38,949 bases of DNA from an uncultured Candidatus Nitrosopumilus sp. (GTDB taxonomy: Archaea > Thermoproteota > Nitrososphaeria > Nitrososphaerales > Nitrosopumilaceae). Numbering within the stretch: position 1 is the first letter of the stretch; each line of letters opens with the position of its first letter. The position numbers and the translations under genes are program-made. The notes beneath the pieces are model-generated. The model was not told where the DNA came from. It made no database searches and worked only from the letters and a program-made list of their open reading frames with translations. Positions 4,181-31,353 of the stretch are shown here, piece after piece. The stretch is taken from positions 1 through 38,949 of the forward strand of contig CAJQMY010000008.1 of NCBI GenBank assembly GCA_905479565.1. Direction: 5' to 3'.

Positions 4181-4387
4181 ATGCTAGGAACCACTGAGAT
4201 TATCGTATTAGTAGTAGTCATCGGAGTACTGATTTTCGGTGCAAAAAAGATTCCAGAACTGGCAAAAACTTTTGGCAAAGCCAAAGGAGAATTTGAGAAA
4301 GGAAAGATAGAGGCAGATAAAGATCTAAAAGAATTCAAAGAGGAAATCAACAGTAGTTCCAAGGATAAAGAAGTAAAATCAGACTAG
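4181..4387 (+). CDS. tatA: twin-arginine translocase subunit TatA/E
   Basis: 68 aa. It has an N-terminal TM helix followed by FGAKKIPELAKTFGKAKGEFEKG, the TatA hinge/amphipathic-helix signature. Confidence 0.88.
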   Translation: MLGTTEIIVLVVVIGVLIFGAKKIPELAKTFGKAKGEFEKGKIEADKDLKEFKEEINSSSKDKEVKSD

Positions 4388-4812
4388 TTTTCAGAGAGTT
4401 TTGCAAAATCATCTAGCACATCATCATAACTTTGTTTGAAATTGTTTTTTCCAAACATGACTGAAATCTTCATTTTGCATTTGAATTTCAAATCTACATC
4501 CACCAAGACCTTGGTCCCATTTTCAAGCTCGATAAACTCCTGTTTGATTTTACTTCCCTTTGCATCGCCGCCGATTACAATAATTTCATGCAAGATTGGT
4601 TTTTGGGAAACATGCTTTGCCATAATTATCAATTCCATGTTACCTAAAATCAAATGTTCTTCAACTACAGATACATCACCTCGCATAGAACGAACGCGAA
4701 CTGAAGGATAATGTTGTGGAACTATTCTCTGATAGTTTTCAAAGTTTGAGAAAATGTCAAAAACATTTTCTCGATTGCTATTAACAATTTTTTCTAACGA
4801 AAATTTAGGCAA
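4384..4812 (-). CDS. SRPBCC (START / polyketide-cyclase-like) ligand-binding protein
   Basis: 142 aa. The pattern ...VFDIFSNFENYQRIVPQHY...V.V.S...G...VEE.L and the length fit the SRPBCC fold family, and it is paralogous in pattern to ORF 12216-12671. It has a TTG start and lies next to ubiX. Confidence 0.6.
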   Translation of the reverse strand: MPKFSLEKIVNSNRENVFDIFSNFENYQRIVPQHYPSVRVRSMRGDVSVVEEHLILGNMELIIMAKHVSQKPILHEIIVIGGDAKGSKIKQEFIELENGTKVLVDVDLKFKCKMKISVMFGKNNFKQSYDDVLDDFAKLSEN

Positions 4813-4819
4813 TAGTATT

Positions 4820-5380
4820 TTAGAGAGTGCCCCATCTCGGGTATAAATTGTGCTCTATATCAAACTGGTCTAAGCATTTTCCAACACCGTGATTTACTAT
4901 ATCGTCGATTGATTTGGGTTTTGTGTAAAATTCAGTTACAGGAGGCAAAATCACAATACCCAGTCTAGCGAGCTTTAGCATATTTTCCAAATGAATTGCA
5001 GAAAGAGGGGTTTCCCTTACCATCAAAATTAATTTTCTAGATTCTTTAATTGTAACTCCAGCCGCTCTTGCTACCAAAGTGTCATCGTAACCATTTGCAA
5101 TTGCAGACAGTGTTTTCATGCTACATGGTGCCACAACCATCCCATCAATTCTATGAGTGCCACTAGAAACACTAGATGCCATATTTTTTTCATCAGAGAT
5201 ATTTGTGGCAAGAGATTTCACATGTTCGGGAGTAAATTCAGTTTCCATCGAAATGCATTTTTCACCCCATTCAGAAATTACCAGATGAGTTTCAACGTTT
5301 AATTTTTTGAGAGTTTCAAGCATTCGTATTCCATAAATTGCACCAGTGCTGCCAGTAATTCCGATTACAAGTTTCAACAA
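4820..5380 (-). CDS. ubiX: flavin prenyltransferase UbiX/Pad1 family
   Basis: 186 aa. LVIGITGSTGAIYGIRMLETL...VVAPCSMKTLSAIANGY... are typical UbiX flavoprotein motifs. Confidence 0.9.
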   Translation of the reverse strand: MLKLVIGITGSTGAIYGIRMLETLKKLNVETHLVISEWGEKCISMETEFTPEHVKSLATNISDEKNMASSVSSGTHRIDGMVVAPCSMKTLSAIANGYDDTLVARAAGVTIKESRKLILMVRETPLSAIHLENMLKLARLGIVILPPVTEFYTKPKSIDDIVNHGVGKCLDQFDIEHNLYPRWGTL

Positions 5381-5435
5381 TCAATCTTACAATGTACAGT
5401 ATTTTATCTATTAGATAGGCAAGACAAAATTATCA

Positions 5436-5573
5436 CTAGAGGTCAGGTGAATTTTCAGCATCAGATAATTCTTGATCAGCTTTTCTTCTTTTGTACCATA
5501 GGACTATGCCTGCAACAAGCATGACAGGTAGAAGGATTGCGCCAAGTAGTTGCAGTTCAAAATTGTATAACAT
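5436..5573 (-). CDS. small single-pass membrane protein (45 aa), below the ORF-track cutoff
   Basis: Manual translation gives MLYNFELQLLGAILLPVMLVAGIVLWYKRRKADQELSDAENSPDL*. That is one hydrophobic helix, then a KRRK stop-transfer, then an acidic tail. It fills an otherwise empty gap. Confidence 0.4.
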   Translation of the reverse strand: MLYNFELQLLGAILLPVMLVAGIVLWYKRRKADQELSDAENSPDL

Positions 5574-5670
5574 GGTTTGAATGAAATACCAAGTAAAAAA
5601 AATCTATTTAATCAAGTCGATCTGAATAATCAAAAATTAGCTATATTAGATACCAATATGCAGGCACAAT

Positions 5671-6762
5671 ATGATCAAGAGTTCCGAGATTAAGAAAATA
5701 GTCAACGATTATTCCGATGTCAAAATAGGCGTACTTGGCAGTCACTCAGCACTGGAAATAATGGATGGTGCCAAAGATGAGGATTTTCAAACCAGAGTCT
5801 TTTGCCAGAAGGGACGAGAAGGACCTTATCAAAGATTTGGCCGTATTGCAGATGAGATTACAGTTTTAGACAAATTCAAAGATATGGCATCAGCCAAATA
5901 TCAGAAAGAGCTACGGGATTCCAGCACAATCATTGTGCCTCACAGATCACTTACAGTATACTTGGGATACAAAACAATTGAGAATTCATTCAAAGTTCCA
6001 ATATTTGGAAATAGAAAACTATTCCAAGCAGAAGAAAGAACTGCCAGAAAGAGCCAATACTATCTTTTAGAGAAAGCCAGAATAAAGTATCCAAAATTGT
6101 TCAAAGACCCTAGACGAATTAACAAGCCATGCATTGTCAAGGTTCAAGAAAAAAAGAGGCCGCTAGAAAGAGCATTCTTCAACGTATCATCATACAAAGA
6201 TTACGTAACAAAATCTGAAGAGAAAATCAAGCAAGGAATAATTGCCAGAAAGGATCTTGAAAAGGCAAGCATTGAAGAATTGGCAATAGGAACATACATG
6301 AATTTTAATTTCTTCCACACTCCAATTTCAAATCAAGTTGATTTTATCGGAATTGAGAGAAGATTGCAAACCAACATTCATGATTACAATGCGCTTCCGG
6401 CAAAAGAGCAATTAGAAATTGACATTGATCTACAAAATATAGAAGTAGGCCACACTCCTGCAAGCATTAGAGAATCATTACTTGAAAAAGTACTCAAAAT
6501 GGGAGATAAATTTGTGGCAGCAGTAAAGAAAGAATATGCCCCGGGAATTATCGGTCCATTTTCATTACAAAGCGTAATTACAAAGGATTTAGAATTGATT
6601 GTGTATGATGTATCATTAAGGGTTCCAGGAAATCCAATCGTCGCAACAACCAGCCCATATACAAAATATCAATACGGTCAAACATTTGGAGTTGGCAGAA
6701 GAATTGCCATGGAAATTAAAAGGGCACAAGAAGAAGACCGTTTAGATGAAATCGTCACTTGA
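5671..6762 (+). CDS. purP: 5-formaminoimidazole-4-carboxamide ribonucleotide (FAICAR) synthetase, archaeal ATP-grasp PurP
   Basis: 363 aa. IGVLGSHSALEIMDGAKDEDF...GPFSLQ...VYDVSLRVPG matches the PurP family. It sits with other purine genes. Confidence 0.87.
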   Translation: MIKSSEIKKIVNDYSDVKIGVLGSHSALEIMDGAKDEDFQTRVFCQKGREGPYQRFGRIADEITVLDKFKDMASAKYQKELRDSSTIIVPHRSLTVYLGYKTIENSFKVPIFGNRKLFQAEERTARKSQYYLLEKARIKYPKLFKDPRRINKPCIVKVQEKKRPLERAFFNVSSYKDYVTKSEEKIKQGIIARKDLEKASIEELAIGTYMNFNFFHTPISNQVDFIGIERRLQTNIHDYNALPAKEQLEIDIDLQNIEVGHTPASIRESLLEKVLKMGDKFVAAVKKEYAPGIIGPFSLQSVITKDLELIVYDVSLRVPGNPIVATTSPYTKYQYGQTFGVGRRIAMEIKRAQEEDRLDEIVT

Positions 6763-6825
6763 GTGAAATACTAAATCAAACCGATTTCTAAGTAAAATTA
6801 CGCCTAAAATTAAAAAAATGGAGTA

Positions 6826-7737
6826 TTACTCCAATTTCAAAGGAATGTCGGCACTTCCAAAAGTTTCATCGATTCTGAAAGTATAACTCTTTGATGAATC
6901 ATACTCAAACTCAGTTCCGCCATATCCGATATTTGGTCCAAAGAGAATATTGAATTCTCGCGAATCACCAGGATTCAACACGATGGTACCGCTGGTAAAG
7001 TCCATTCCAGAATACTTGAATGCATTTGAGCCATCCCAAACATCATATGCACATATTGACGGACTGGTGCAGTTTATTGCAGTTATTTCGGAGCTAGTAT
7101 TTTCTGCAAGCATGCGCACTGATAGTATGGCCTGTCCTGAAGAGGTTATTTCAAACTCATTTCCCTCAGAGCCTGATCCAAACCAATGATACGTTATCGG
7201 CCCTAGAACAAAGGATTCAGCATCTGCTTTGTATTTGTAAAGCACGATTTCTTTGTCAATTGGTTTTTCACAATCAATTCTTTTGTATGCTTTGACAATT
7301 TCAGAGCATTTCTCTAATTCTGCTTCAAGTGCAGCCAATTCAGAGTCATCAGTGTTTGATTGTACAGATTCAACTTGAATTGGTTCAGAATCCACAGAAA
7401 CTGAAATCAAACCAGATTTTATCAAATGCTGAATTCCATTTACAAATTCACCATCAGTGATGGTTCCATCAGCCCACCATCCAGCATTGTTTTTTACCCA
7501 ATCTGGAACACCATCAGATGTTTCAGATGAGATTGTTGTTGGAGGGACTACAATGATTCCATCAGTTATCAAAAATTCCACACCTGAAATAAATTCAGAT
7601 TCGGTGATAGCTCCATCAGCCCACCATCCAGCATTGTTTTTTACCCAGCTAGGGACCTCTGCATAAGCAGATGATATAGTTGAGGTTACTACTAAAAGTA
7701 GAACAATTGTCGAAATTGCGCCTATTGTTGTTTTCAT
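6826..7737 (-). CDS. secreted protein with two copies of a roughly 35-aa W-rich module (VPxWVKNNAGWWADGxIxxxEF)
   Basis: It has a signal peptide MKTTIGAISTIVLLLVVTSTISSAYA. This is followed by EVPSWVKNNAGWWADGAITESEFISGVEFLITDGII and GVPDWVKNNAGWWADGTITDGEFVNGIQHLIKSGLI, and then a C-terminal beta-rich domain. Confidence 0.75.
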   Translation of the reverse strand: MKTTIGAISTIVLLLVVTSTISSAYAEVPSWVKNNAGWWADGAITESEFISGVEFLITDGIIVVPPTTISSETSDGVPDWVKNNAGWWADGTITDGEFVNGIQHLIKSGLISVSVDSEPIQVESVQSNTDDSELAALEAELEKCSEIVKAYKRIDCEKPIDKEIVLYKYKADAESFVLGPITYHWFGSGSEGNEFEITSSGQAILSVRMLAENTSSEITAINCTSPSICAYDVWDGSNAFKYSGMDFTSGTIVLNPGDSREFNILFGPNIGYGGTEFEYDSSKSYTFRIDETFGSADIPLKLE

Positions 7738-7757
7738 AAGATTTTTTTTCGCTCATC

Positions 7758-7796
7758 ATATTTAACCTAGTGATAATAATTTATTCTAGTGGTAAT
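7758..7796 (-). promoter_or_regulatory. promoter of 6826-7737: TATA (GTTAAATAT) plus proximal and distal 11-mers
   Basis: The plus strand reads atatttaac CTAGTGATAAT (7767-7777) N8 CTAGTGGTAAT (7786-7796). The TATA centre is about 25 nt from the ATG at 7737. A third copy, ATAGTGGTAAA, is at 7817-7827. Confidence 0.55.
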
Positions 7797-7877
7797 TCAG
7801 CAAACCATCGCAAAACATAGTGGTAAAATGAAAAAATTAGTTTTCTGCTTATATGTAAATCAGAAAGAACTTGAAAA

Positions 7878-8411
7878 GTGAATAAAAAACAAGAAAATAT
7901 CAACACATCTGTACAAAAATTAACTGAAAAAGACATCCGAAATTATGTTTTTGAGAGATTTGCAGAAATAAAAAAATCAAATAAAATCAAAGATCTAGTA
8001 TCATTTCAAGCGATGAATAAACACATGATTATGGCTCATAATCAAAATGAATTAAAAAATCTAGGAAATATTGTTGGAAGCCATAAAAAAATAAAATTCT
8101 CAGAAATGTTAGAAGAATATGAAAAACATCTTAAAATTGCATTAGAATCAAACCCAACAATAAAGACACATAGCAATGTAATTTTACATATTTTTGGATT
8201 CTTTTCCAGTAGTTTTAACCAAGTAGAAAAAGAAAAATTTTTTGATTTACTAAAACAGTATAAAGAAGAAGAAATCAACATCGGAGGAATTTTGTCAGAA
8301 ATAAATCCAATTATTTATCGATTAAACAACACATATCTTGCAAATCAAACATATTTTTTATTATATTCAAATCCAAATCCTGGAAATCTATTTAGAATTT
8401 TAAAAAAATAA
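7878..8411 (+). CDS. DUF1722 (YbgA C-terminal domain) protein
   Basis: 177 aa with a GTG start. MAHNQ...THSNVILHIFGFF...EKEKF...LLKQYKEEEI...YLANQTYFLLYSNPNPGNL parallels the E. coli YbgA C-terminal region as I recall it (MAHS...THSNVLQHLSGYL...EQYRLG...YIAKQVYLQPHPENLGLRN). Confidence 0.75.
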   Translation: MNKKQENINTSVQKLTEKDIRNYVFERFAEIKKSNKIKDLVSFQAMNKHMIMAHNQNELKNLGNIVGSHKKIKFSEMLEEYEKHLKIALESNPTIKTHSNVILHIFGFFSSSFNQVEKEKFFDLLKQYKEEEINIGGILSEINPIIYRLNNTYLANQTYFLLYSNPNPGNLFRILKK

Positions 8412-8423
8412 AATAATTTAAAA

Positions 8424-9803
8424 TTAAATAGGTTTTCCTTTATGTTGATAATCTATTACCTTATGGAACAAATTATGAGATGAGACAACAGTTAACGAAA
8501 CAAAGAATATTCCAATGAAATTTCTAATGGTCATCAATTCACTAGGTTCAGATGCTATTAACGAAGTTTGAAAAACAACGTAAAAATTATCAAATAACCA
8601 AAATACCAGAGTTATCCAAGAAAGAATACCCGCCATAAAATAACCCAAGCGAGTTTTATTATGAATAAAAACTAAAGAAGTAAAAATCACGGTATACCAA
8701 AAAAACGAATCAATTAACCATAGAGGTTGATAAACATCAGGTCTATCATCCAACCAATAATAAGAAGTTCCAATAACAGCCAAAGCTAATAAAGATATTT
8801 GAATTAGTTTTTGATTAATTTTAAAACCTGTTTTCTCTTCTTTTATTTTTGATGGAGAAGGTGTCGAAATCATTTCTTTTGTTGCGATATCAATAGATTC
8901 ACGAACAGATTTAAGATGAATTGGAATGATTTTTGTAATTTTATCATCAGTAACAACAGTATCATGTACAAGACTATCAATTAGAGGTCTAGCAAGTGAA
9001 GCTTTGACGGGAGTGATAAGATCCACCCAATAAGATGAGAGTCGAGTGGTCAAAAAAGGAATTTGTAAAACGAAAAGATTCCTATTCAAATATGCAGAAT
9101 AAATACGCATTAATTCTTCATAAGTTATTTTATCAGGACCTCCAATTTCAAAAATTTGATCAACAGTTTTAGGCTTTGAAAGACATTCTGCCAAATAGAA
9201 AATCACATCGTCAACCGCAATGGGTTGAGCCAATGATTTAACCCAAGAAGGACAAACCATTACAGGCAATCGCTCTACAAGATAACGAAGCATAGCGTAT
9301 GAACCACCCTGGGCACCGATAATTAACGATGCACGAAATTCAGTTACAGGAATTGTACCAGAACGAAGTATATCACCCACATCTTTACGACTTTTCATGT
9401 GAGGAGATAATTCCAAACTATCATTGACCAATCCCCCCAAATAGATAATTCTCTTCACACCAGCTTTTGTTGCAGATTTAAGAAAGTTTTGAGCTTGAAC
9501 TTTTTCACGATTTGCAAATTCTTGCCATTCACTTTTACTGCCTTCCATCGAATGAAGCAAGTAGTATACAATCTCAATTCCCTGCATAGATTGATCTAAT
9601 TTGTCATTATCAAAAACATCGGCCTGAACATATTTTACATTCTGTGTGTTACTTAATTTTTGCCTACTCAAACCAGTTACAGTGTAACCGTTTGATGACA
9701 ACAAGGATACCAATCTAGAGCCAATAAAACCAGTAGTACCAGTTACCATTATCGAAAAAGGAAAAGACTGATCAATTGTTTTGCGTAACATAATTTGCCC
9801 CAT
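8424..9803 (-). CDS. NAD(P)-binding SDR/NmrA-like protein fused to a C-terminal 4-TM membrane domain
   Basis: 459 aa. It has an N-terminal Rossmann motif VTGTTGFIGSRLV. The last 130 aa or so contain four hydrophobic helices (LIQISLLALAVIG..., FFWYTVIFTSLVFI..., GILSWITLVFWLF..., FIGIFFVSLTVV...). Confidence 0.75.
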   Translation of the reverse strand: MGQIMLRKTIDQSFPFSIMVTGTTGFIGSRLVSLLSSNGYTVTGLSRQKLSNTQNVKYVQADVFDNDKLDQSMQGIEIVYYLLHSMEGSKSEWQEFANREKVQAQNFLKSATKAGVKRIIYLGGLVNDSLELSPHMKSRKDVGDILRSGTIPVTEFRASLIIGAQGGSYAMLRYLVERLPVMVCPSWVKSLAQPIAVDDVIFYLAECLSKPKTVDQIFEIGGPDKITYEELMRIYSAYLNRNLFVLQIPFLTTRLSSYWVDLITPVKASLARPLIDSLVHDTVVTDDKITKIIPIHLKSVRESIDIATKEMISTPSPSKIKEEKTGFKINQKLIQISLLALAVIGTSYYWLDDRPDVYQPLWLIDSFFWYTVIFTSLVFIHNKTRLGYFMAGILSWITLVFWLFDNFYVVFQTSLIASEPSELMTIRNFIGIFFVSLTVVSSHNLFHKVIDYQHKGKPI

Positions 9804-9823
9804 GCGGATTTTTTTATTGCGAA

Positions 9824-9862
9824 TTATTTAAACTAGTGATAATTACTGATAATAGTGGTAAT
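9824..9862 (-). promoter_or_regulatory. promoter of 8424-9803: TATA (TTTAAATAA) plus the same 11-mer pair as at 7767/7786
   Basis: The plus strand reads ttatttaaa CTAGTGATAAT (9833-9843) N8 ATAGTGGTAAT (9852-9862). The 19-bp box spacing is identical to the 7758-7796 promoter. The TATA is about 25 nt from the ATG at 9803. Confidence 0.55.
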
Positions 9863-9905
9863 TTAGAGTCGAGCCTGAAAATTCAGTCATTAAATATGAA
9901 TAGTT

Positions 9906-9942
9906 TTGGCACTATAAACCAATATTAGCACCAGTTAAATAA
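9906..9942 (+). promoter_or_regulatory. promoter of the CarH-like gene: TTGGCACTAT - N9 - TTAGCACCAG - TTAAATAA
   Basis: The distal box is at 9906-9915 and the proximal box at 9925-9934, directly abutting the TATA at 9935-9942. The ATG at 9963 lies about 25 nt from the TATA centre. Confidence 0.55.
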
Positions 9943-9962
9943 CACATTATAAAAAAATAATC

Positions 9963-10805
9963 ATGGTGTACATTAGAGCCAAGAAGGTAAAATCTGATCA
10001 ATACCTTTACCTGGTCAAAAGTGTCTGGGATTCAAAAAAAAGTACATCTAAACAAGAAATTGTAAAATATCTTGGAAAAGCATCAGAAGTTGTAAAGGAT
10101 GACATTCCAGTAAAGTATAGAGACAACCCCAAAGTTCTTTCAGTACTAGCATCATTTAATCCAAAAGACATTAAAAAAAGAGAAGAGTCAACAAGGAAAT
10201 CAAAGCAACAACTTTACAAGAAATTAACAGAGGGCAACATTAACGAGTGTGTAAAAATATATGAAGAATATACAAAAATTTTCAATCCAGCTGATTTTTT
10301 CGATAAGATTCTAAAACAAGTAATGTTTGATATTGGAGAAGACTGGGCAACCAATAAAATAAGCATTGCAACAGAGCATGTTGCAAGCAATATTGCAGAA
10401 ACATTGGTCAAAATAATTATGGATAGTGTTTCAGGAGCAGTAAATAAGAAAAAAGTTCTAATATGCGTACCTGTGGGCGAAGAGCATCATTTGGGATGCG
10501 ATGTCTTAGAAACATATCTTTCAATTAAGGGATTCAAAGTATACAACATGAGAACATCAATGCCAACAGAAACTATAATCGATTTTATTGAAAATAATAA
10601 ACCAGATATGGCATTTATCTCAATAACATTGCCAGACAATATTATAGCTGGTCAAAGACTAGTAAGAAAAATTAATGATGAATGTAAGATTCCAATTCTA
10701 ATTGGCGGGTATGCTATGCAATCAAAAAAAATACCAAAGTTTGAAGGAAAAGTAATTTCAGAATCAAATTTGGATGAATTACCAAAAATTATCAGAAATT
10801 TATAA
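9963..10805 (+). CDS. CarH/LitR-type cobalamin (B12)-binding photoreceptor-like protein with a non-MerR N-terminal domain
   Basis: 280 aa. GEDW128ATNKISIATE138H139VAS is an exact Wx9EH motif in the helical-bundle region. VPVGE173EH175HLG178CD is ExHxxG at the start of a Rossmann-type B12-binding domain (VLICVP...FKVYNM...MAFISITL...PILIGG). The N-terminal 45 aa (MVYIRAKKVKSDQYLYLVKSVWDSKKSTSKQEIVKYLG) are basic and contain no recognisable MerR HTH. Confidence 0.75.
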   Translation: MVYIRAKKVKSDQYLYLVKSVWDSKKSTSKQEIVKYLGKASEVVKDDIPVKYRDNPKVLSVLASFNPKDIKKREESTRKSKQQLYKKLTEGNINECVKIYEEYTKIFNPADFFDKILKQVMFDIGEDWATNKISIATEHVASNIAETLVKIIMDSVSGAVNKKKVLICVPVGEEHHLGCDVLETYLSIKGFKVYNMRTSMPTETIIDFIENNKPDMAFISITLPDNIIAGQRLVRKINDECKIPILIGGYAMQSKKIPKFEGKVISESNLDELPKIIRNL

Positions 10806-10814
10806 TTAAAAATA

Positions 10815-11513
10815 TCAGCATTTCAGATAAGATTCAATCTTTGGATGACATAGAATAGAACTATGTGCAGCAGAGTCAGTTCCAATACCATAACTTACAG
10901 TTGAATCTCCAACAAAAAATAGTCCTTCAATCCCAGAAATTTGGTGAGGCATTTTTGATTTCCACACTTTTCCAGGCTCCTTTACTACAGATTCAACTAA
11001 TTTCCAGGCCATAGGGCGCTCCCAAATTAAATCAGACTCAAATTTTGGATAAATTGATGTTATCTCATTTTTCATTTTATCAACAATGCTTTTGATAGCA
11101 TTGGTATCATCAGTCACTTCAGGACTTACAGGAGTTCCCGCAATAATCAAGTGCTCACCAGGAGGAGAAACAGATGGAGTAATGTTAGAAATAAAAAATA
11201 TTCCTTTAGTAGTGTATTCAGTACCTACAGGAAATACAACCTGACGTGAATCAATTTTTGATTTTAGTGCAAAATGAACTTCAATTACAGACGTGGTCTT
11301 GTTTAATTTGTTAATTTTTTGAATAAATTTCTCGTCAATGATATTTTTATCAAATAATTGATTTAGTGCATGATATGCAGGATATGAGATAACAACACAA
11401 TTTGTAGAAATGTGTTGCTCAATTCCGCTTATATCTTTGACGAGTATGCCTGTAACCTTGGAATTCTCAACAATAATTTTTTTTAACAGATTGTTGTGTA
11501 TCGACTTCCCCAT
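10815..11513 (-). CDS. FAD-dependent oxidoreductase of the phytoene-desaturase/amine-oxidase (CrtI-like) family, C-terminal fragment
   Basis: ...KIIVENSKVTGILVKD...FFVGDSTVSYGIGTDSAAHSSILC has the C-terminal FAD-contact motif of the family. It continues the gene begun at 12161 via a middle segment in a third frame, with a break in the T8 run at 11477-11484. Confidence 0.75.
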   Translation of the reverse strand: MGKSIHNNLLKKIIVENSKVTGILVKDISGIEQHISTNCVVISYPAYHALNQLFDKNIIDEKFIQKINKLNKTTSVIEVHFALKSKIDSRQVVFPVGTEYTTKGIFFISNITPSVSPPGEHLIIAGTPVSPEVTDDTNAIKSIVDKMKNEITSIYPKFESDLIWERPMAWKLVESVVKEPGKVWKSKMPHQISGIEGLFFVGDSTVSYGIGTDSAAHSSILCHPKIESYLKC

Positions 11514-11618
11514 TTTTCAATAAAATATAATCAGACAAAACATGAGATATGGAATCATATCCACCATTATCAGGATATGCAAATTCGCTTGTTCCCCCCT
11601 TAAACGGATTTGCTCTAA

Positions 11619-12161
11619 TCAAGTACGAGTGAATTCACCTAGCGATATATGATCTGCAGTATCTGCAAATGCCAACATACAAACAGATTCAAAAAAAGCA
11701 TTTGTATCAAAATCTAAATTTTTAGTAATATCAGTCAAAGGAACATCATCCCACAATTCAGTTTTTTCTAAAGAAGTGAATGCCAAAGGAAACAGAATTC
11801 TTAAAAGTTTGACCCTGCTTTTGAAAGGTAACAACGAAAGTCGGAGTAAATCCAAGATTCCTTTTGGATAACCGTGAAAACCACATGTGGAATAAAATGC
11901 AATGTCATTTACTTTTGCAAGTATCAAATTAGAGTCAATTTTTAATTTTTTCAGCACAGTGAAAATTGCAGATTTTTTATAAAACGGCATTATATGAAAC
12001 CCATTATCAAGTATATGATTTCTAAATTTTACAGAAGCAGTCCTGCCTCCTAATTTTGAAGACTTTTCTAAAACTCGAACTTTATGGCCTTCGGTGGACA
12101 ATAGTGCTGCGATGGTTAGCCCACCCACGCCTGCGCCAATCACAATTATAGGCATGCTCAT
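11619..12161 (-). CDS. FAD-dependent oxidoreductase (CrtI-like family), N-terminal fragment
   Basis: MSMPIIVIGAGVGGLTIAALLSTEGHKVRVLEKSSKLGGR is the GxGxxG...E...GGR dinucleotide-binding motif. Downstream, in another frame (11514-11620), the sequence reads LIRANPFKGGTSEFAYPDNGGYDSISHVLSDYILLKNGEVDTQQSVKK, the family's YPxGG segment. Confidence 0.8.
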   Translation of the reverse strand: MSMPIIVIGAGVGGLTIAALLSTEGHKVRVLEKSSKLGGRTASVKFRNHILDNGFHIMPFYKKSAIFTVLKKLKIDSNLILAKVNDIAFYSTCGFHGYPKGILDLLRLSLLPFKSRVKLLRILFPLAFTSLEKTELWDDVPLTDITKNLDFDTNAFFESVCMLAFADTADHISLGEFTRT

Positions 12162-12215
12162 GAACGATTTATGAAAAAATATTATATATACAGATGCTAA
12201 CTAATTAAAATAGTG

Positions 12216-12671
12216 CTAACTTGAGGATAACTTGCTTTTAATCGAATATTTTTCTGCACAATTAATGAACTCAAGCATCACATGGCTCATTTTTTTGCGA
12301 AGAATTTTCTTTACGAATGGAATATACTTTAGAATACCGTTTATTTTCAAATTTACAGAAATTGAAATTAAGGTACCAGAAGAAGATGACTCATAGTTTT
12401 CAATAAAGGAAGTTCCTTTTAATGGGCCTGTCAAAATAAAGACTTTATATATATTTGGAGGTAAAACAAGATGCATAGTTTTAACTTTCACAGATTGTCC
12501 TAAAAAATTAATTTTTTCTGAAACAACAATGCCAGATTCATCTTCACTAAGAATGTCTAATGATTTAAAATAATTTGGCATGATGGTGTGGAAATTATTT
12601 ACATCAGTGCTAATCTTAAAAACTACTTCACGATTTAGTGAAGACTGTCCATATAAACCAAAATTAATCAT
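12216..12671 (-). CDS. SRPBCC-like ligand-binding protein
   Basis: 151 aa. ...VFKISTDVNNFHTIMPNYFKSLDILSEDESGIVVSEKI... follows the same pattern as ORF 4384-4812. Its start overlaps the upstream gene's stop (ATGA). Confidence 0.5.
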   Translation of the reverse strand: MINFGLYGQSSLNREVVFKISTDVNNFHTIMPNYFKSLDILSEDESGIVVSEKINFLGQSVKVKTMHLVLPPNIYKVFILTGPLKGTSFIENYESSSSGTLISISVNLKINGILKYIPFVKKILRKKMSHVMLEFINCAEKYSIKSKLSSS

Positions 12672-13102
12672 GATAAAATTTCCGGTTCAATATGCCCCCA
12701 CAGATTTGATTTGGTAACAACTAGACTAGAATCAAATTTTTTCATTTGTAAATAAACCAAAGATAATGATTTCTTAACAGAATTAGTTTTTTCAGGATCT
12801 GTTAAAGATAATAATCTAATAGTTGTTTTTTTAGAACTGGCAGATACTTGAATAAAAAATTCTTGATGTAATTCATCAATTACTACTACAGATAACAATG
12901 CGCTCAATCCATTACTATCGACATAAATATTTGAAATTCTTATCAGGGGGGATTTTTGAAAATAAGGTGAAAATAACTTTGAAAACTCTAAAAGATTCAC
13001 TTGTTTATTTACAACAATATGTGGCAATTGTAATTTTTTTAATTTTATTTTATTTATAGAAGAGTGAAAAAATAACCTAGTGCTAAAAATACTTGCTCTC
13101 AT
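12668..13102 (-). CDS. hypothetical protein, co-operonic with the SRPBCC gene
   Basis: 144-aa ORF with a 4-nt overlap onto 12216-12671. I recognise no family. Confidence 0.45.
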   Translation of the reverse strand: MRASIFSTRLFFHSSINKIKLKKLQLPHIVVNKQVNLLEFSKLFSPYFQKSPLIRISNIYVDSNGLSALLSVVVIDELHQEFFIQVSASSKKTTIRLLSLTDPEKTNSVKKSLSLVYLQMKKFDSSLVVTKSNLWGHIEPEILS

Positions 13103-13119
13103 AATAACATAGGTTCAGT

Positions 13120-13156
13120 TTAGCACTAGATTTGCAAACATAAGCACCTTAAATAA
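13120..13156 (+). promoter_or_regulatory. promoter of the TFB operon: TTAGCACTAG - N11 - TAAGCACC - TTAAATAA
   Basis: Boxes are at 13120-13129 and 13141-13148, with the TATA at 13149-13156. The ATG at 13177 is about 25 nt from the TATA centre. Confidence 0.55.
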
Positions 13157-13176
13157 TTTAGAACCGTATTAGCAGT

Positions 13177-14088
13177 ATGTTAGCTGAATTAGTGCATCAA
13201 AAAAATTGTAAAAAAAACAATATGATTATGGATGCAGACACAGGGGAATTAGCATGTAGTAATTGTGGAGCCGTTTCCTTAGAGAAAATTATTGATATGA
13301 CCGCAGAATTCAGTGGTTTTAGCTCAGAAGGACATTATAATAATTCCAGAGTAGGTATGAAGACATCATTAAAGATGGCAGACAGAGGATTATCCACAAT
13401 CATGGAATCTCAAGATAAAGATTCATCAGGTAAAAGATTATCAAGTGAAAATCGTAGATTGTTTTATCGCCTCAGAATATGGGATAGAAACAGTCGCTCA
13501 TCAATTTCTGTTAAGTCATTTCAAAAGGCATTTACATTGTTAGATGGAATGAGCTCAAAATTAGGATTGCCAGAATCTGTAATAGAGGAGACGGCATACT
13601 TGTTTAGAAAAATTGCTGCAAAGAAAATTCTTGCAGGAAGATCCACATCAGCAGTATTATGTGCTTCTGTATACATGACTTGCAGATTAACAGACACTCC
13701 AAGAACTCTGCATGATGTTGCAAATGCAGGGAATCTAAAGAAAAAGCATTTGCAAAGAATATATCGATTTTTAATAAAAGAATTGGAATTATATCCTGAA
13801 ACATATAATCCAAGAGAATTTGTTACACGAGTTGCAAAGGCAGTAGGATTACCTGAGAAAACTGAAAGATTGGCTTTCAAAATATTGAGCATTTCTGAAA
13901 AGAACAATGTTTCAACTAGTAAAAATCCAATGGCAATGGCGGCTTCTGCAATTAATCTTGCATCAGTGATGAATAATGAAAAAATTACTCAGCTAAAAAT
14001 TTCAGAAGCTTCAGGCATTAGTGCAGTAACCATCAGAGATAGAACAAAAGAGATCAAAGAAAAAATCGGAGGTGAAGTCAATGGGTAG
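13177..14088 (+). CDS. tfb: transcription initiation factor IIB (TFB) paralog
   Basis: 303 aa. It has an N-terminal ribbon (H..NC...DADTGELACSNCG), a B-reader/linker, and two cyclin-fold repeats (GRSTSAVLCASVYMTCR..., PMAMAASAINLAS...). The first Cys pair of the Zn ribbon is degenerate (HxxxC). Confidence 0.9.
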   Translation: MLAELVHQKNCKKNNMIMDADTGELACSNCGAVSLEKIIDMTAEFSGFSSEGHYNNSRVGMKTSLKMADRGLSTIMESQDKDSSGKRLSSENRRLFYRLRIWDRNSRSSISVKSFQKAFTLLDGMSSKLGLPESVIEETAYLFRKIAAKKILAGRSTSAVLCASVYMTCRLTDTPRTLHDVANAGNLKKKHLQRIYRFLIKELELYPETYNPREFVTRVAKAVGLPEKTERLAFKILSISEKNNVSTSKNPMAMAASAINLASVMNNEKITQLKISEASGISAVTIRDRTKEIKEKIGGEVNG

Positions 14089-14266
14089 AACATGTAATAA
14101 TATTTGTGAAAGATACAAAGCCGCACCAGCTCCCAACAGAATCAGGTATGAAATAGGACAAAAAAGATGCACATTTTGCGGAATTTTTGTGCTATCAGAT
14201 AATGCCAGATGTATGTGCTGTAAAGCTGTTTTAAGAACAAAACCACGATCTAGGAAGGCCAAATGA
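14081..14266 (+). CDS. small zinc-ribbon protein (61 aa from ATG 14081)
   Basis: MGRTCNNICERYKAAPAPNRIRYEIGQKRCTFCGIFVLSDNARCMCCKAVLRTKPRSRKAK has Cx3C...CxxC...CxCC and a basic tail. It overlaps the TFB stop by 8 nt and the next gene's ATG by 4 nt. Confidence 0.6.
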   Translation: MGRTCNNICERYKAAPAPNRIRYEIGQKRCTFCGIFVLSDNARCMCCKAVLRTKPRSRKAK

Positions 14267-14592
14267 GAGTTTGGGACATTCCTGTTGAAAACCTTTGTAG
14301 AAACCATCTACTAGGTGAGCATAGGGAGTTACATGCCATGTGGTCTGTCATCACCCAAAATAAGAAAGGATACTCAAAACATCCTGAAACTATCAGATGG
14401 ATTGGAAAATTAAAGGCGTTGTATCTTAGGCACAATCAACAAGTAAATGAAATGAAGAATAGAGGATATAATCACCAAAGTCCATTGGATGCAAAAATTG
14501 CAACAGGTAAATCAAAACAAGACGCATATCTACATACACCAACAAAACAAATCCAAATTCTAAAACAAAAAGAATGCAATTGCAAAGTCTGA
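14263..14592 (+). CDS. pyrimidine-dimer DNA glycosylase, T4 endonuclease V (DenV / Pyr_excise) family
   Basis: MRVWDIPVENLCRNHLLGEHRELHAMWSVI...KGYSKHPE parallels the T4 endoV N-terminus (...LADQHLMAEYRELPRVF...), including the catalytic-region Glu in ExRE. Confidence 0.78.
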   Translation: MRVWDIPVENLCRNHLLGEHRELHAMWSVITQNKKGYSKHPETIRWIGKLKALYLRHNQQVNEMKNRGYNHQSPLDAKIATGKSKQDAYLHTPTKQIQILKQKECNCKV

Positions 14593-14697
14593 TTTTAATT
14601 TTATGCAAAGAATCTTGTTGGCACTAGTCTCAAATTCAGATTTAGGTTAAAAGTTAAAAGATTAAAAATTCAACATGGTAATCAAGGAGATATCTCA

Positions 14698-15309
14698 TTG
14701 AGAGGTATTTTTGAATCTCTTCTTTGTTTTGGAATAATGACGGGATTACTTTTACCAGCAAGACTACTTTTCGTGGAATATATTTCAGATGATTGGTTAG
14801 GGTCATTTGGAATCATTTCTGCAATTTCTATATCAGTCATCATACTTGCAAAAAAACAAAAATTGGGTTTCTTCGGACCTATGCTTGAACGACAGACATA
14901 TAAATTTCAAAGAGGAAAACGCGGAATTCTAGTTTTTGGTGAATCAGTATTTCTTCTTGCACTACTAGGAACGACAATTATTGCCATAGAACAAGGAAAT
15001 TCAGTTTATTCTGATCTAAAATTACAAAATAACAAAAATTTATCTTCAAACTCTGTACAAGTTCAGGTTCTAGAGATAACAAAAGAGTGGACGGCAGTGG
15101 ATTGGATGAAAGGGCATTTGATGGGGATCATAGCCATGATTACAAATTTTCCCGCAATGAGTGCAGCTATTGCATCAATTGATGACGCATCTGGAGGATG
15201 GTTATTACATGTTTACACTGTAGGTTTTGTTGAATACATAGAGTTGTTGGGAATTTTTATATTTTATAGAATCCCCATGGGTAACAAATTGGTCTCCAGA
15301 ACACAATAA
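14698..15309 (+). CDS. polytopic membrane protein, hypothetical
   Basis: 203-aa ORF with several hydrophobic helices; the track start is TTG. An ATG at 14675 sits at leaderless distance from the TATA-like TTAAAAGTTAAAAG (14646-14660), but it is one frame off. This may be another indel. Confidence 0.55.
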   Translation: MRGIFESLLCFGIMTGLLLPARLLFVEYISDDWLGSFGIISAISISVIILAKKQKLGFFGPMLERQTYKFQRGKRGILVFGESVFLLALLGTTIIAIEQGNSVYSDLKLQNNKNLSSNSVQVQVLEITKEWTAVDWMKGHLMGIIAMITNFPAMSAAIASIDDASGGWLLHVYTVGFVEYIELLGIFIFYRIPMGNKLVSRTQ

Positions 15310-15451
15310 CATATTCTATCCTGTTTATTCAGTGAATGCATAAGTTAAATCAGTTTAACACTCATGCCATCAAAGAAATTTTTCTAAACAACAGATTATT
15401 TAAAAAATATCTTTAATGGGATTCGAGAAATAGATGCAGATACGCATTAAA

Positions 15452-16153
15452 TTAAAGAGAATTTACAAATTCGCGTAGTTTCAGAGTTTTTTCTTCAACT
15501 GATAGTGGCAATAGTTTGTTCATCATTGATTTCATTTCTAATTTTTTAGCATCTCTTTCTTCATCAGTTAAAGATTCGAATTGTACTTTCATAGACATGA
15601 AATGCATAATCATCTTTGCCCTCTCATCAAGAGATAATGCAAAAAAGGCATCTTTCACTTCGCCCCATTGTTGTTTTTTGATTTCTCTTTCCTCTGGAGT
15701 TAGATCTGCATAGTGGTCTTTCCATTTTTTGTGAGATTTACTATCAGAAGGTTTAGAATGTTTCCAGTTATCTTTTGAAACGCCATCAGAGACGTATAGT
15801 AATTCACCATTTCCAGCATCAACTAGAACAATATGAGAAATATCATCATTTGCCAAAACACCAATCTTGTAAACAAGAAATCCCTGAGTGACATCAAGTT
15901 TTCCCCACATGGCTTTACTATTTTCAACAGAATTCTCAGCTACTGCCATGGCCACACTCAATACAATTTTTGCATCATCAGAATGATCAGCAGATGTATC
16001 AGTTATTGCGATTGTTCCTGAAATTTCTGGAACTGAGAATTTATCATATTCTGCGCTAACATCAGATGGGGAGTTTGAAAGCAGAGTAATTGCGAAGATA
16101 CTTGCAATAACCATTAGGGGAATTGTAATTTTGGTTTTAGGAATTTTAGCCAA
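15452..16153 (-). CDS. secreted PepSY-like domain protein with a helical repeat tail
   Basis: It has a signal/anchor segment ITIPLMVIASIFAITLL. The segment WGKLDVTQGFLVYKIGVLANDDISHIVLVDAGNGELLYVS fits the PepSY beta pattern. The C-terminus has repeated L(T/S)xEER/EEK helices. Confidence 0.55.
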   Translation of the reverse strand: MAKIPKTKITIPLMVIASIFAITLLSNSPSDVSAEYDKFSVPEISGTIAITDTSADHSDDAKIVLSVAMAVAENSVENSKAMWGKLDVTQGFLVYKIGVLANDDISHIVLVDAGNGELLYVSDGVSKDNWKHSKPSDSKSHKKWKDHYADLTPEEREIKKQQWGEVKDAFFALSLDERAKMIMHFMSMKVQFESLTDEERDAKKLEMKSMMNKLLPLSVEEKTLKLREFVNSL

Positions 16154-16318
16154 GTAACAGATTGAAATTTTTATCCCTTATAACCATCCCTACTGATTTT
16201 ACCTGCTGCTAATTTCAATACAAATGATCCACGAGGATTACCTATCAAATTAGACATTAAAATAGATTCAGACAGGCGTGAAAGTTATTGCTTGTCTTTT
16301 AGCTTGTCAATTAAGTCT

Positions 16319-16975
16319 CTAAGATCTTTTTGGAGGTTTTTTTGATTTTTTTCTGAGAATTATTAATGTTGGAACAATAAATAACCCAATTAGAATCAAA
16401 ATGAAAAATACAATTGAATTATAATCATTCACAAATAATTTTGTGTCAAGCCAAGCTTTAGGTAAAATTGTAAAAAAATCAACAAATGAAAAATCCTCAA
16501 TAGTTCCAATGGCTAAACTATATTTTCCACTTTGATTTTTTTCATCCATTACAGCAAGAAAATATGTTCCATCTGCTGGAATTACTGTTTTAAATTCCTG
16601 TCTTTCCCAATATGTTGTCTGACCAAATGGCTCATAGAACTCATCACCTGGAAAATTTTTTTCATAATTGATTTTCTTCTTCTCAAAATTATCATCACCT
16701 ACAAAAACAAGAGTTGGAGAATATTCTTCCAAACCATCAATTTTAGGAACTACAATACTTGCAAAAAATGAATCTCCTTTATTGGCCTCAAAAGTGTAAA
16801 ACTTTGCTTCATTTTCTCCTAAATTTTCATAAATTACCCAAGAAACTTCATGATCTGGAATTTTGAGGGCCAATTCAAAATTTCGATGAGCATCATCATG
16901 GCTAATTAATTTGTGCCCATATGCAGGATTTAATGAAACAAGAGTAACAAAAAATAAAATCAATATTTTTTTCAT
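16319..16975 (-). CDS. secreted beta-rich protein with a C-terminal TM anchor and basic tail
   Basis: The signal peptide is MKKILILFFVTLVSLNPAYG. The C-terminus is IVFFILILIGLFIVPTLIILRKKSKKPPKRS. Confidence 0.6.
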   Translation of the reverse strand: MKKILILFFVTLVSLNPAYGHKLISHDDAHRNFELALKIPDHEVSWVIYENLGENEAKFYTFEANKGDSFFASIVVPKIDGLEEYSPTLVFVGDDNFEKKKINYEKNFPGDEFYEPFGQTTYWERQEFKTVIPADGTYFLAVMDEKNQSGKYSLAIGTIEDFSFVDFFTILPKAWLDTKLFVNDYNSIVFFILILIGLFIVPTLIILRKKSKKPPKRS

Positions 16976-17082
16976 AACGCTGGTTTAGAGAATTCGTATT
17001 TTAACTGCAGACGATTTTTTTCATATTGGCACTAGGATGAATTAAGAATGTTCTTCATATAGAAAGAAAATTAATTTTACTC

Positions 17083-17205
17083 ATGAAAAGATTCGGAATT
17101 CAAATGTGCAATAGTTGTGGAAAAGAATTTCACGAGTGGTCTTGTGACTATTGCTATGCCAAAATCATTATTAACCAAATTGAGGATTTATTGTGTTCCA
17201 AATAG
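17083..17205 (+). CDS. mini zinc-ribbon protein (40 aa), below the ORF-track cutoff
   Basis: MKRFGIQMCNSCGKEFHEWSCDYCYAKIIINQIEDLLCSK* has CxxC...CxxC. It is preceded by TTGGCACTAG (17026-17035) and a TATA-like CATATAGAAA about 25 nt upstream. Confidence 0.4.
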   Translation: MKRFGIQMCNSCGKEFHEWSCDYCYAKIIINQIEDLLCSK

Positions 17206-17216
17206 GAGAAATATAG

Positions 17217-17627
17217 ATGGAACAAACTATTTCAGACACAAAAATTCCGATAAGAATCGCTTTTGTAAAGCCTGATGGAACACCCAACATCATATCATTA
17301 TGGTATGAACAGATCGAGGGGAAAATTTATTGTGCAACAACAAAAACGGCAAAGATTGTTTCGCATCTTCAGAATAATCCAAAATGCGGTTTTGAGATAG
17401 CAACGGACAAGCCACCATACAAAGGCACCAGAGGAACAGGGCATGTAAAGATTATAGAAAGCCAAGGACAAGAAATTCTTAAAATTTTAATGAAGAAATA
17501 TTTAGGAAGTAAGGAATCAACACTATCAAGATATTTGAACGATAATTCAGAAGCCGAAGTAGCACTAGAAATTTTACCTCAAAATATTTTCAATTATGAT
17601 TATTCAAAAAGAATGAAGGACGTTTGA
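17217..17627 (+). CDS. pyridoxamine 5'-phosphate oxidase-family FMN-binding protein
   Basis: 136 aa. ...IRIAFVKPDGTPNIISLWYEQIEGKIYCATTKTAKIVSHLQNNPKCGFEIA... fits the split-barrel PNPOx-like pattern. Confidence 0.7.
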   Translation: MEQTISDTKIPIRIAFVKPDGTPNIISLWYEQIEGKIYCATTKTAKIVSHLQNNPKCGFEIATDKPPYKGTRGTGHVKIIESQGQEILKILMKKYLGSKESTLSRYLNDNSEAEVALEILPQNIFNYDYSKRMKDV

Positions 17628-17630
17628 TTT

Positions 17631-17756
17631 ATGATAGACGAGGGATGTCCAACATGCAATTCAAGGAGACATGCACTATCAAAAGTAGATAGTAATGGAG
17701 ATGGCAGTATTCAGTTTTTAAAATGTCAAAACTGTAGAAAAATTTGGATACCTTAA
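17631..17756 (+). CDS. mini zinc-ribbon protein (41 aa), below the ORF-track cutoff
   Basis: MIDEGCPTCNSRRHALSKVDSNGDGSIQFLKCQNCRKIWIP* has CPxC...CxxC. It starts 3 nt after the stop of 17217-17627. Confidence 0.45.
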   Translation: MIDEGCPTCNSRRHALSKVDSNGDGSIQFLKCQNCRKIWIP

Positions 17757-17760
17757 ATTA

Positions 17761-17796
17761 TTAGCACTAGTCAAAATTTTAGCCCTAGATTAAATA
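17761..17796 (+). promoter_or_regulatory. promoter of 17826-18179: TTAGCACTAG - N8 - TTAGCCCTAG - ATTAAATA
   Basis: Boxes are at 17761-17770 and 17779-17788 (18-bp spacing). The second box abuts the TATA at 17789-17796. Confidence 0.5.
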
Positions 17797-17825
17797 TCAT
17801 AAAATGTAATCCATATTGAAAGGAA

Positions 17826-18179
17826 ATGCAACAAACGAAATACAAACAGACCCCACAACTGAAATTTTTAGCAATAGTGGTTGTGGCCACTTCAGTGATA
17901 CTAATTTTCACGATAGCTCCCTGGAACATTCTTCCAGCATCAGTCTCTGAAGAAGTGTCAGTAATCGCTGTAACGGATTATGGTTGTGTGGGTGAGTCAA
18001 GTCTTGGAAGATCAGTTGTTGTTTCAGACTGTGATGCAAGTGTTGGAGATATTGTTTCTGCAACATTTTACATTCCAGCAGGAGAAACAAACGGATACCT
18101 GAAGGAACTTGAAAAAAGACAAAACCCAATGGTAGACGCGTGGGACAGTAGTGTCAGCGGTAAAGGATTCTCGCCATAA
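17826..18179 (+). CDS. membrane-anchored extracytoplasmic protein, hypothetical
   Basis: 117 aa. It has an N-terminal anchor LKFLAIVVVATSVILIFTIAPW followed by a small Cys-containing domain. Confidence 0.5.
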   Translation: MQQTKYKQTPQLKFLAIVVVATSVILIFTIAPWNILPASVSEEVSVIAVTDYGCVGESSLGRSVVVSDCDASVGDIVSATFYIPAGETNGYLKELEKRQNPMVDAWDSSVSGKGFSP

Positions 18180-31325: not shown

Positions 31326-31353
31326 GTATATAACTATTGGTAATGAGTGGTAA
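31326..31353 (-). promoter_or_regulatory. promoter of 30892-31305: TATA (TTATATAC) plus two ATTACCA(A/C)T boxes
   Basis: The plus strand reads gtatataa CTATTGGTAAT (31333-31343) GAGTGGTAAT (31344-31353). The TATA is about 24 nt from the ATG at 31305. The boxes relate to those at 7767/7786 and 9833/9852 but are contiguous. Confidence 0.5.

Follow-up and report, generated by a model that had tools for sequence, protein, structure and literature searches.

A conserved gene cluster of Nitrosopumilaceae with a common promoter repeat and UV-repair genes, probably a light-controlled regulon

The DNA analyzed here, in the following called the window, is a stretch of 38,949 nt of contig CAJQMY010000008.1 (assembly GCA_905479565.1) from an uncultured Candidatus Nitrosopumilus sp. 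It contains a gene cluster around a CarH-like protein (the sensor) with a cobalamin (B12) module. Because the cluster is conserved, has a common promoter motif and includes genes for repair of ultraviolet (UV) damage, it is probably a light-controlled regulon of Nitrosopumilaceae, which would span 6.8-18.2 kb of the window (Table 1). A first-pass annotation, made from the sequence alone, had proposed a light/UV-response island of eight genes at 7878-14592. All eight open reading frames (ORFs) were found where that annotation had placed them, and its light/UV theme is strengthened by photolyase, NreA and DenV, which recur in the cluster among relatives. The limits were, however, too narrow, as secr303 and p117 also belong to the cluster.

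A scan of one genome per species gave 80 Nitrosopumilus and Nitrosarchaeum loci with sensors 63-92% identical to that of the window (most 66-92%). Gene order was compared by tblastn with all window proteins and by clustering of all ORFs, and presence was counted in 35 Nitrosopumilaceae loci, taken at species level, that have 7 kb or more on each side. The core order was secr303 (-) divergent from DUF1722, a variable slot, the SDR gene (-) divergent from the sensor gene, and then the flavoprotein gene, SRPBCC1 and p144 (all -) divergent from the genes of the TFB paralogue and the Zn-ribbon protein. The Zn-ribbon gene was present in all 35 loci, secr303, DUF1722 and the TFB paralogue in 33 each, SDR in 26, SRPBCC1 in 25, the flavoprotein in 22 and p144 in 20. 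The left neighbors of the cluster in the window, TatC, Flavoprotein and PurP, were found in 2 of the 35 loci. Depending on the genus, the left flank was PurP, DUF432-MscS, SirC-HemA-HemB or another TFB, and the right flank was DenV-p218, YchF or other genes. The flanks change by genus and the core stays, and the block has therefore been retained as a unit. Independent scattering of the genes in relatives, named beforehand as the observation that would speak against an island, was not what was found; the block is conserved and its borders are sharp. A search for co-occurrence with the CarH-like gene had been suggested for both DUF1722 and DenV. It was seen for DUF1722, whereas DenV was present in 5 of the 35 loci, adjacent only in the clade of the window (7 loci), and lies outside the conserved core.

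The same genes were also found together, in other orders and orientations, on metagenome contigs with sensors 36-51% identical to that of the window (L124, L125, L135, L141, L148, L166, L172, L187 and L188, from the element-based scan described below). Membership is thus kept despite shuffled order, which argues for functional coupling and not for inherited gene order. The SDR gene lies beside the sensor gene in L094, L131, L152 and L208 as well, where the sensor is 29-39% identical. Horizontal acquisition of the island was considered and rejected in view of its ordinary composition (GC content 0.27-0.35 in the block, 0.28-0.41 in the rest of the window) and its vertical conservation; the block contained no tRNA and no Rfam match. 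In Nitrosarchaeum (L026, L032, L034-L036, L038, L040, L043, L046-L048) the cluster lies directly next to sirC-hemA-hemB, which serve the synthesis of tetrapyrrole precursors of cobalamin. Their adjacency could be a coincidence or a link to B12 supply.

A single repeat, the putative operator, was recognized in all three divergent intergenic regions and with a common layout at almost every transcription unit of the cluster. It consists of two 9-bp direct repeats (TTAGCACTA) spaced 19 bp from start to start, at times with a third copy between them; at the SDR promoter, three units of about 9.5 bp each follow one another in tandem. Written in the direction of the promoter, the element reads TTAGCACTA(G/T)-N9-TTAGCAYYAG, followed at once by TTAWATA, and two or three direct repeats lie next to a TATA box at at least 8 promoters. 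As the proximal repeat abuts the TATA box, it occupies the position of the B recognition element (BRE). The distance to the start codon is 56-57 nt for the first repeat and 37-38 nt for the second, and the codon lies about 28 nt past the proximal repeat (in the sensor promoter the ATG is 28 nt past the start of GTTA); these distances imply very short or absent leaders. At DUF1722 the arrangement was a single half-site in reverse orientation, about 21-23 nt 5' of the TATA box, which was found at -53 in 35 of 61 orthologues and within -47 to -53 in 49 of the 61.

A position weight matrix (PWM) was built from the orthologous sensor upstream sequences. Four window sites scored above the shuffle maximum of 8.5, namely those of the sensor, SDR, p117 (12.2) and secr303 genes, and recognizable variants of the element were present at the flavoprotein, p144, TFB and mem203 promoters. 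The flavoprotein site scored below the shuffle maximum and is supported by its conservation in orthologues, where the half-site was found at -57 or -56 in 40 of the 47 site-bearing upstream regions. The window contained 29 half-sites compared to 14.1 +/- 3.9 in shuffled sequences, and the 14 that are promoter-placed were all within 5431-17762. In 1.22 Mb of related loci, 326 half-sites were ORF-coupled, that is, at the right distance from where an ORF of 100 aa or more begins, compared to 19-43 for six permuted motifs. The possibility of a generic promoter element was rejected for the loci examined on the basis of this comparison and of the absence of the element from the neighboring unrelated genes YchF, BirA, HemA/B and MscS.

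In the sensor promoter the element did not vary among 75 distinct orthologous upstream sequences, unlike its flanks. The forward half-site was found upstream of 73 of 76 sensor orthologues, 47 of 48 for the flavoprotein, 49 of 57 for secr303, all 22 for p117, 6 of 7 for mem203, 30 of 54 for SDR and 36 of 60 for TFB. For the last of these the first repeat (R1) was at -56 in 26 of the 60, and in about 20 further loci a small Zn-ribbon ORF is located ahead of TFB, and it is this ORF that the element precedes. For p144 the count was 18 of 40 upstream regions, and 39 loci at a fixed offset once the start was corrected. Operon-internal genes were mostly devoid of the site (SRPBCC1 6/48, Zn-ribbon 8/67). 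The element was retained in genomes of 49-60% GC (L090, L095, L096, L098) and was also located upstream of distant sensor homologues (L093, L095, L096, L098). An exact-match scan of metagenome contigs resulted in 112 sites, 79 of them with a correctly placed ORF. Among the genes behind these 79 sites were sensor homologues (21), secr303 homologues (26), p117 (2), a membrane protein of 65 aa from a soil group (about 15) and the small Zn-ribbon gene (about 5); a handful of sites were chance matches on high-GC contigs. secr303, which adjoins the sensor gene in L090 and L093 and in lineages down to 37% sensor identity, is the most constant element-bearing partner of the sensor gene.

The sensor is composed of an N-terminal beta domain of three strands (residues 1-40), a bundle of four helices plus a Rossmann B12 domain, and was modelled by AlphaFold with a confidence score (pLDDT) of 92.7. 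In an alignment of 31 homologues (23-48% identical), the Wx9EH motif of the four-helix bundle (W128-x9-E138-H139) was conserved in at least 90% of the sequences. The B12 domain contains the His-on motif E173xH175xxG178-x41-S220xT222-x25-G248G249. W128, E138, H139, E173, H175, S220, T222 and G248G249 were invariant or nearly so, H175 and G248G249 strictly, and the position of G178 was variable. Co-occurrence of Wx9EH and B12-binding motifs defines the CarH photoreceptors, which as tetramers bind tandem direct repeats overlapping the promoter (PMC9304148, PMC8156234), and the Wx9EH cap separates light-sensing CarH from B12-independent paralogues (PMC9304148). The top PDB matches of the sensor model in Foldseek were photocobilins and the cobalamin-binding domains of CarH/LitR, with E-values of 1e-12 to 1e-10. 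The NCBIfam model TransRegCarH matched residues 79-229 only, far below its cut-off.

The sensor had been described as a non-MerR protein, and this description holds. There was no MerR match in Pfam, and residues 1-40 were modelled as a three-stranded beta meander with a pLDDT of 93. Invariant residues of this domain among the 31 homologues were R5, K7, Y14, Y16, V18, W22, Q31, Y36 and G38. Its position, its basic conserved residues and the location of the best copy of the element at the sensor gene's own promoter suggest that it is a DNA-binding module. A profile search with the domain retrieved short proteins or fragments only and no new domain architecture. Among these were five proteins of 51-87 aa (P0278, P0296, P0310, P0315 and P0323), encoded on contigs of 30 kb-1.6 Mb, that consist of the sensor N-terminal domain only and may represent either this domain in stand-alone form or split genes.

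A sensor variant of about 305 aa, 36-41% identical to that of the window, keeps the element (L103, L147, L152, L154, L164, L167, L168 and others). Its contigs have about 33% GC and many of them are apparently from soil metagenomes, judged from the contig names; the 65-aa membrane protein mentioned above is a frequent element-bearing gene in this group. The most distant homologues (26-29% identical; L086-89, L094) had no recognizable motif or neighborhood, and one was located in an MMPL operon. For this reason the circuit is limited to Nitrososphaeria-type relatives with a sensor at least about 36% identical.

Genes for the repair of UV damage are attached to the cluster in several ways. A photolyase gene of class I type (DNA_photolyase and FAD_binding_7 domains) directly follows DUF1722 on the same strand in 9 related species (e.g. 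L026, L036, L043, L047), as in E. coli, where ybgA, a DUF1722 gene, is followed by the photolyase gene phr. In contrast to E. coli, the window and many related loci have no photolyase after DUF1722. With 2 further species in which photolyase is found elsewhere in the island, the total was 11 species loci, together with 5 metagenome contigs. The slot behind DUF1722 is occupied by the repair protein NreA and a BtuF-like binding protein in 22 species and by small unknown genes in others, and is empty in the window. In L125 and L135, where the sensor is 47% identical, photolyase and DUF1722 are divergently arranged, and the start of the photolyase gene is preceded at 53 nt by a half-site in forward orientation. 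DenV was found in three independent attachments: as the last gene of the TFB operon in the clade of the window, behind its own element-bearing promoter in L031, and overlapping the sensor stop codon in L093 (sensor 40% identical). It had been suggested that a dimer glycosylase takes the place of a photolyase here, and within the loci examined the clade of the window does have DenV where others have photolyase. The DenV-like protein matched PF03013 with 92.2 bits, compared to a cut-off of 23; a PDB sequence search with it retrieved no T4 endoV chain. By eye only, an 'EHRE' stretch in this protein resembles 'EYRE' of the T4 enzyme. Two further arrangements were seen: in L067 a second sensor paralogue lies beside a photolyase / u183 / u134 cassette, and in L060 a TFB paralogue and photolyase are adjacent on the same strand inside the island.

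In the circuit proposed for this cluster, the regulator would be the protein encoded at its center, a CarH-type module predicted to bind adenosylcobalamin (AdoCbl) through the Wx9EH cap and the His-on motif, with the small basic three-stranded beta domain in place of the MerR DNA-binding domain of CarH. By analogy with CarH, an AdoCbl-bound oligomer would occupy the direct repeats in the dark and block the access of TBP and TFB. Near-UV to green light would photolyse AdoCbl, the oligomer would dissociate and the promoters would open. The targets would be the sensor gene itself, secr303, the divergent DUF1722 (DUF1722-photolyase in other species), the membrane SDR, the CrtI-like flavoprotein, the p144-SRPBCC1 pair, the TFB paralogue/Zn-ribbon/DenV operon and p117. 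The TFB paralogue could relay the signal to a second tier of promoters; a parallel with a general transcription factor is offered by Streptomyces, where LitR reportedly acts through the sigma factor LitS. The parts of this proposal differ in strength. The conserved cluster is very likely co-regulated. The B12 protein is likely to be the binder of the repeats, and light is the favored signal. Repression is about as plausible as activation. A CarH-like light circuit is, as a whole, the reading we prefer with some confidence. There is about an even chance that ammonia-oxidizing archaea possess a light circuit in which an AdoCbl photoreceptor with a new beta-sheet DNA-binding domain occupies BRE/TATA at some ten promoters and, when illuminated, sets free a regulon of photolyase or DenV, NreA, membrane redox enzymes and a secreted protein, with a TFB paralogue that extends the response.

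Several observations weigh against this circuit. The family is also found in ammonia-oxidizing archaea of soil, sediment and groundwater, where light is scarce, and most members of the regulon are without an assigned function. At the residue after the Trp, where many CarH proteins have His, the sensor has Ala. DNA binding by its N-terminal domain is assumed, since the domain matched no Pfam family, MerR or other, and the PDB fold search gave no significant match (best Foldseek E-value 1.1). Sites next to BRE/TATA, or upstream of it, are also compatible with archaeal activators, and regulation could have either sign. The element could, moreover, be that of the TFB paralogue or of some other factor. 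The repeat would then be an extended BRE read by the cluster's TFB paralogue, or the site of an unlinked factor, and the B12 protein would merely be regulated. The proximal repeat is exactly at the BRE position beside the TATA box, the TFB paralogue is nearly as constant in the 35 loci as the Zn-ribbon gene and has the motif in its own promoter, and no recognized DNA-binding fold is seen in the B12 protein's N-terminal domain, all of which would agree with such an explanation. It is nevertheless unlikely. The second conserved copy 19 bp upstream, and sometimes a third, lies beyond the contacts of TFB, as is typical for the sites of oligomeric regulators. The element is always best conserved in the sensor's own promoter, even in L095, L096 and L098, where no island genes are nearby, and the 21 of 79 sites that precede sensor homologues came from an unbiased metagenome scan.

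Light could also be the wrong signal. The protein might sense cobalamin status (or redox), with a cluster serving B12-linked or lipid/quinone metabolism and repair genes that are incidental. The BtuF-like protein, a periplasmic binding protein found in the variable slot of 22 loci, the sirC-hemA-hemB genes next to the block in Nitrosarchaeum, the lipid-type enzymes (SDR, CrtI-like flavoprotein and SRPBCC protein) and the occurrence of the family in dark habitats fit this explanation. We consider it improbable, as the Wx9EH cap marks light-sensing CarH (PMC9304148), photolyase, DenV and NreA recur and the photolyase promoter of one lineage has the site, and no cobalamin biosynthesis gene in the loci examined has the motif. 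Most improbable of all is that the clustering reflects gene order inherited among close relatives without functional coupling. Nitrosopumilaceae genomes are generally syntenic, and the high identity of the sensors in most of the 80 loci is what such inheritance would give, but it is contradicted by the sharp borders and genus-specific flanks, by the membership kept in shuffled order and by the one motif common to the promoters.

The proposed circuit resembles the CarH/LitR regulons of Thermus thermophilus, Myxococcus xanthus and Bacillus megaterium and the LitR-LitS system of Streptomyces, but it has no MerR domain and its promoter context is archaeal. The two-part cobalamin module, Wx9EH and ExHxxG...SxT...GG, is the same, as is the fold (Foldseek E-value about 1e-10 to 5C8D). 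In both, direct repeats (in the cluster a putative operator) overlap the core promoter, the gene of the regulator (here the candidate) lies beside its targets and is apparently autoregulated, and a CrtI-superfamily flavoprotein and genes for the repair of photodamage are among the targets, which for the cluster are proposed ones. The differences are a beta meander of about 40 residues in place of the MerR winged helix, 9-bp repeats 19 bp apart where CarH operators are tandem 11-mers, BRE/TATA promoters, and no carotenoid pathway. The best structural match of the B12 module was to the photocobilins (PDB 8J2W, 8J2Y; E-value 1.4e-12), which have a bilin-binding globin-like domain and no DNA-binding function; the sensor is without such a domain. 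A further comparison is the UV-inducible TFB3 of Sulfolobus, a truncated TFB paralogue induced by DNA damage. The TFB paralogue of the cluster is apparently also under photodamage-related control and may drive a secondary regulon, but it is full length, with a Zn ribbon and two cyclin repeats, and its control would be by a cofactor sensor.

Marine ammonia-oxidizing archaea are strongly light-sensitive and are major producers of B12. In the literature searched, no light sensor or light regulon was found described for the marine members and no system of the present kind for ammonia-oxidizing archaea, and a cobalamin photoreceptor regulon is not otherwise known to us from any archaeon. If the proposal is true, it would open a molecular route into how light inhibits marine nitrification. 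A defined candidate operator, a candidate sensor and a short list of targets make the question of light directly testable. A new putative DNA-binding module on the light-sensing domain of CarH could be of optogenetic use, and the circuit points to a TFB paralogue under control of a cofactor. The conserved proteins secr303, p144, p117 and the SDR-transmembrane fusion are now given a regulatory context.

Table 1. Genes and putative promoter elements of the cluster (positions in the window)
Feature	Position	Strand	Basis or sequence
secr303, secreted/anchored 303-aa protein	6826..7737	-	N-terminal hydrophobic segment
secr303 promoter, putative operator and TATA	7760..7796	-	TTACCACTAG-N9-TTATCACTAG-GTTAAAT; PWM 11.5
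DUF1722 half-site, reverse relative to DUF1722	7818..7826	-	about 52 nt 5' of start
DUF1722/YbgA-like	7878..8411	+	Pfam E 3e-31, 108.5 bits vs cut-off 22.5
NAD(P)-binding SDR (NmrA/Epimerase N-terminal half) with four C-terminal transmembrane segments	8424..9803	-	Pfam, hydropathy
SDR promoter, putative operator and TATA	9826..9862	-	tandem TTACCACTA, TTATCAGTA, TTATCACTAG; PWM 16.2
Sensor promoter, putative operator and TATA	9905..9941	+	TTGGCACTA-N10-TTAGCACCAG-TTAAATA; PWM 43.4
CarH-like sensor, 280 aa	9963..10805	+	Pfam B12-binding_2 and B12-binding, both above cut-off
CrtI/HpnE-superfamily FAD oxidoreductase (flavoprotein), interrupted	10815..12161	-	Pfam NAD_binding_8 / Amino_oxidase
Flavoprotein promoter, putative operator and TATA	12184..12220	-	GTTAGCACTAT-N8-GTTAGCATCTG-TATATAT; PWM 4.4
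SRPBCC1, weak SRPBCC-like 151-aa protein, second gene of p144 operon	12216..12671	-	Polyketide_cyc E 0.004
p144, conserved 119-aa protein, starts M-PHIV	12668..13027	-	TTG start at 13027
p144 promoter	13051..13087	-	one strong half-site TTTAGCACTAG, plus TATAAATA
TFB operon promoter	13119..13155	+	TTTAGCACTAG-N20-TTAAATA
TFB paralogue, full length	13177..14088	+	Pfam TFIIB E 3e-31
Zn-ribbon protein, 61 aa, seven cysteines	14081..14266	+	ATG at 14081
DenV-like protein of the pyrimidine-dimer DNA glycosylase family, 109 aa	14263..14592	+	Pfam Pyr_excise PF03013 E 2.6e-26
mem203, 203-aa membrane protein, with weak operator-like site 14617-14653 and mini upstream ORF	14617..15309	+	
p117, small membrane-anchored protein, 17826-18179, with operator-like site 17760-17796	17760..18179	+	

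Among the domain assignments of the first-pass annotation, six were backed by Pfam. The fusion of an SDR to four transmembrane segments was confirmed, as Pfam matched the N-terminal half and four hydrophobic segments were located at residues 333-441. In the TFB paralogue, Pfam TFIIB matched two stretches, corresponding to the two cyclin-like repeats, and Zn_Ribbon_TF scored 29.3 bits against a cut-off of 29; the NCBIfam model PRK00423 matched with an E-value of 1e-76, yet below the model cut-off. The genes for TFB, the Zn-ribbon protein and DenV form one operon, as had been proposed, because successive start and stop codons overlap: the Zn-ribbon ATG overlaps the TFB stop codon, and the Zn-ribbon stop codon overlaps the ATG of DenV. 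The ATG at 14081, a refinement of the earlier call, is most likely the start of the Zn-ribbon gene, which is then translationally coupled to TFB and DenV. The gene is uncalled in the source annotation, yet was found by tblastn to be kept beside TFB in 67 loci. In the distant lineages L100, L117 and L170 it lies directly 3' of the sensor gene. secr303 matched no Pfam or NCBIfam family and contains two WxKNNAGWWADG..F..G repeats.

The flavoprotein gene of the window is split into ORFs of 180 and 232 aa. In L002 and L003, Logan assemblies that encode an identical sensor protein, the gene is intact and encodes 448 aa. Compared to these, one base is missing in the window between positions 11622 and 11621, and its T8 run at 11477-11484 is one base longer. 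The two 1-nt changes compensate each other, were seen in the assembly of the window only, and reflect either a mistake in the assembly or a gene that became a pseudogene very recently. The call as CrtI/amine oxidase stands at the level of the superfamily, with every specific NCBIfam model below cut-off. The best NCBIfam scores of the intact orthologue were 102 bits for PRK07233 (cut-off 252) and 57 bits for crtI_fam (cut-off 238). An identity as CrtI phytoene desaturase was not supported, as no equivalog or subfamily model of NCBIfam was above its cut-off, and from its sequence the protein is assigned to the CrtI/HpnE/PDS superfamily and no further.

Two SRPBCC-type proteins had been assigned to 12216-13102. 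For 12216-12671 a weak signal was obtained (Polyketide_cyc, 17.8 bits against a cut-off of 23.4), and the protein aligned at 23% identity with its paralogue at 4384-4812, which itself was above the cut-off with 29.2 bits. The second assignment, at 12668-13102, is unsupported. This ORF had no match in Pfam, NCBIfam or PDB, and an SRPBCC identity of p144 was rejected in view of the missing library matches and an hhalign probability of 0.1% against the SRPBCC1 family. The conserved part of the ORF begins at TTG 13027, giving the 119 aa of p144.

At the mem203 site, a mini-ORF of about 8-10 codons is located at the usual 56 nt. The stop codon of this mini-ORF and the TTG at which mem203 starts overlap, an arrangement that recurs in orthologues. 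Two further sites were observed away from the core. At 31327-31363 (-), which is 13 kb away from the cluster, three copies of 10 bp in tandem (ATGGCATTC, ATTACCACTC, ATTACCAATAG) abut TTATATA and precede a 137-aa ORF (30892-31305) matching no known family; from its upstream sequence this ORF may be an outlying member of the regulon. A single reversed half-site at 5429-5438 has a position of the DUF1722 type (about -50) before the operon 4384-5380 (-), which encodes a Flavoprotein (PF02441) and the SRPBCC paralogue. A homologue of this Flavoprotein lies beside the SDR gene in L125 and L135, and the operon may, from its half-site, be a peripheral member. Unrelated to the cluster are a membrane protein with a CBS domain and similarity to TrkH at 21113-22927 (+) and a large secreted protein with RTX / HYR / Ig repeats at 34372-36756 (-).

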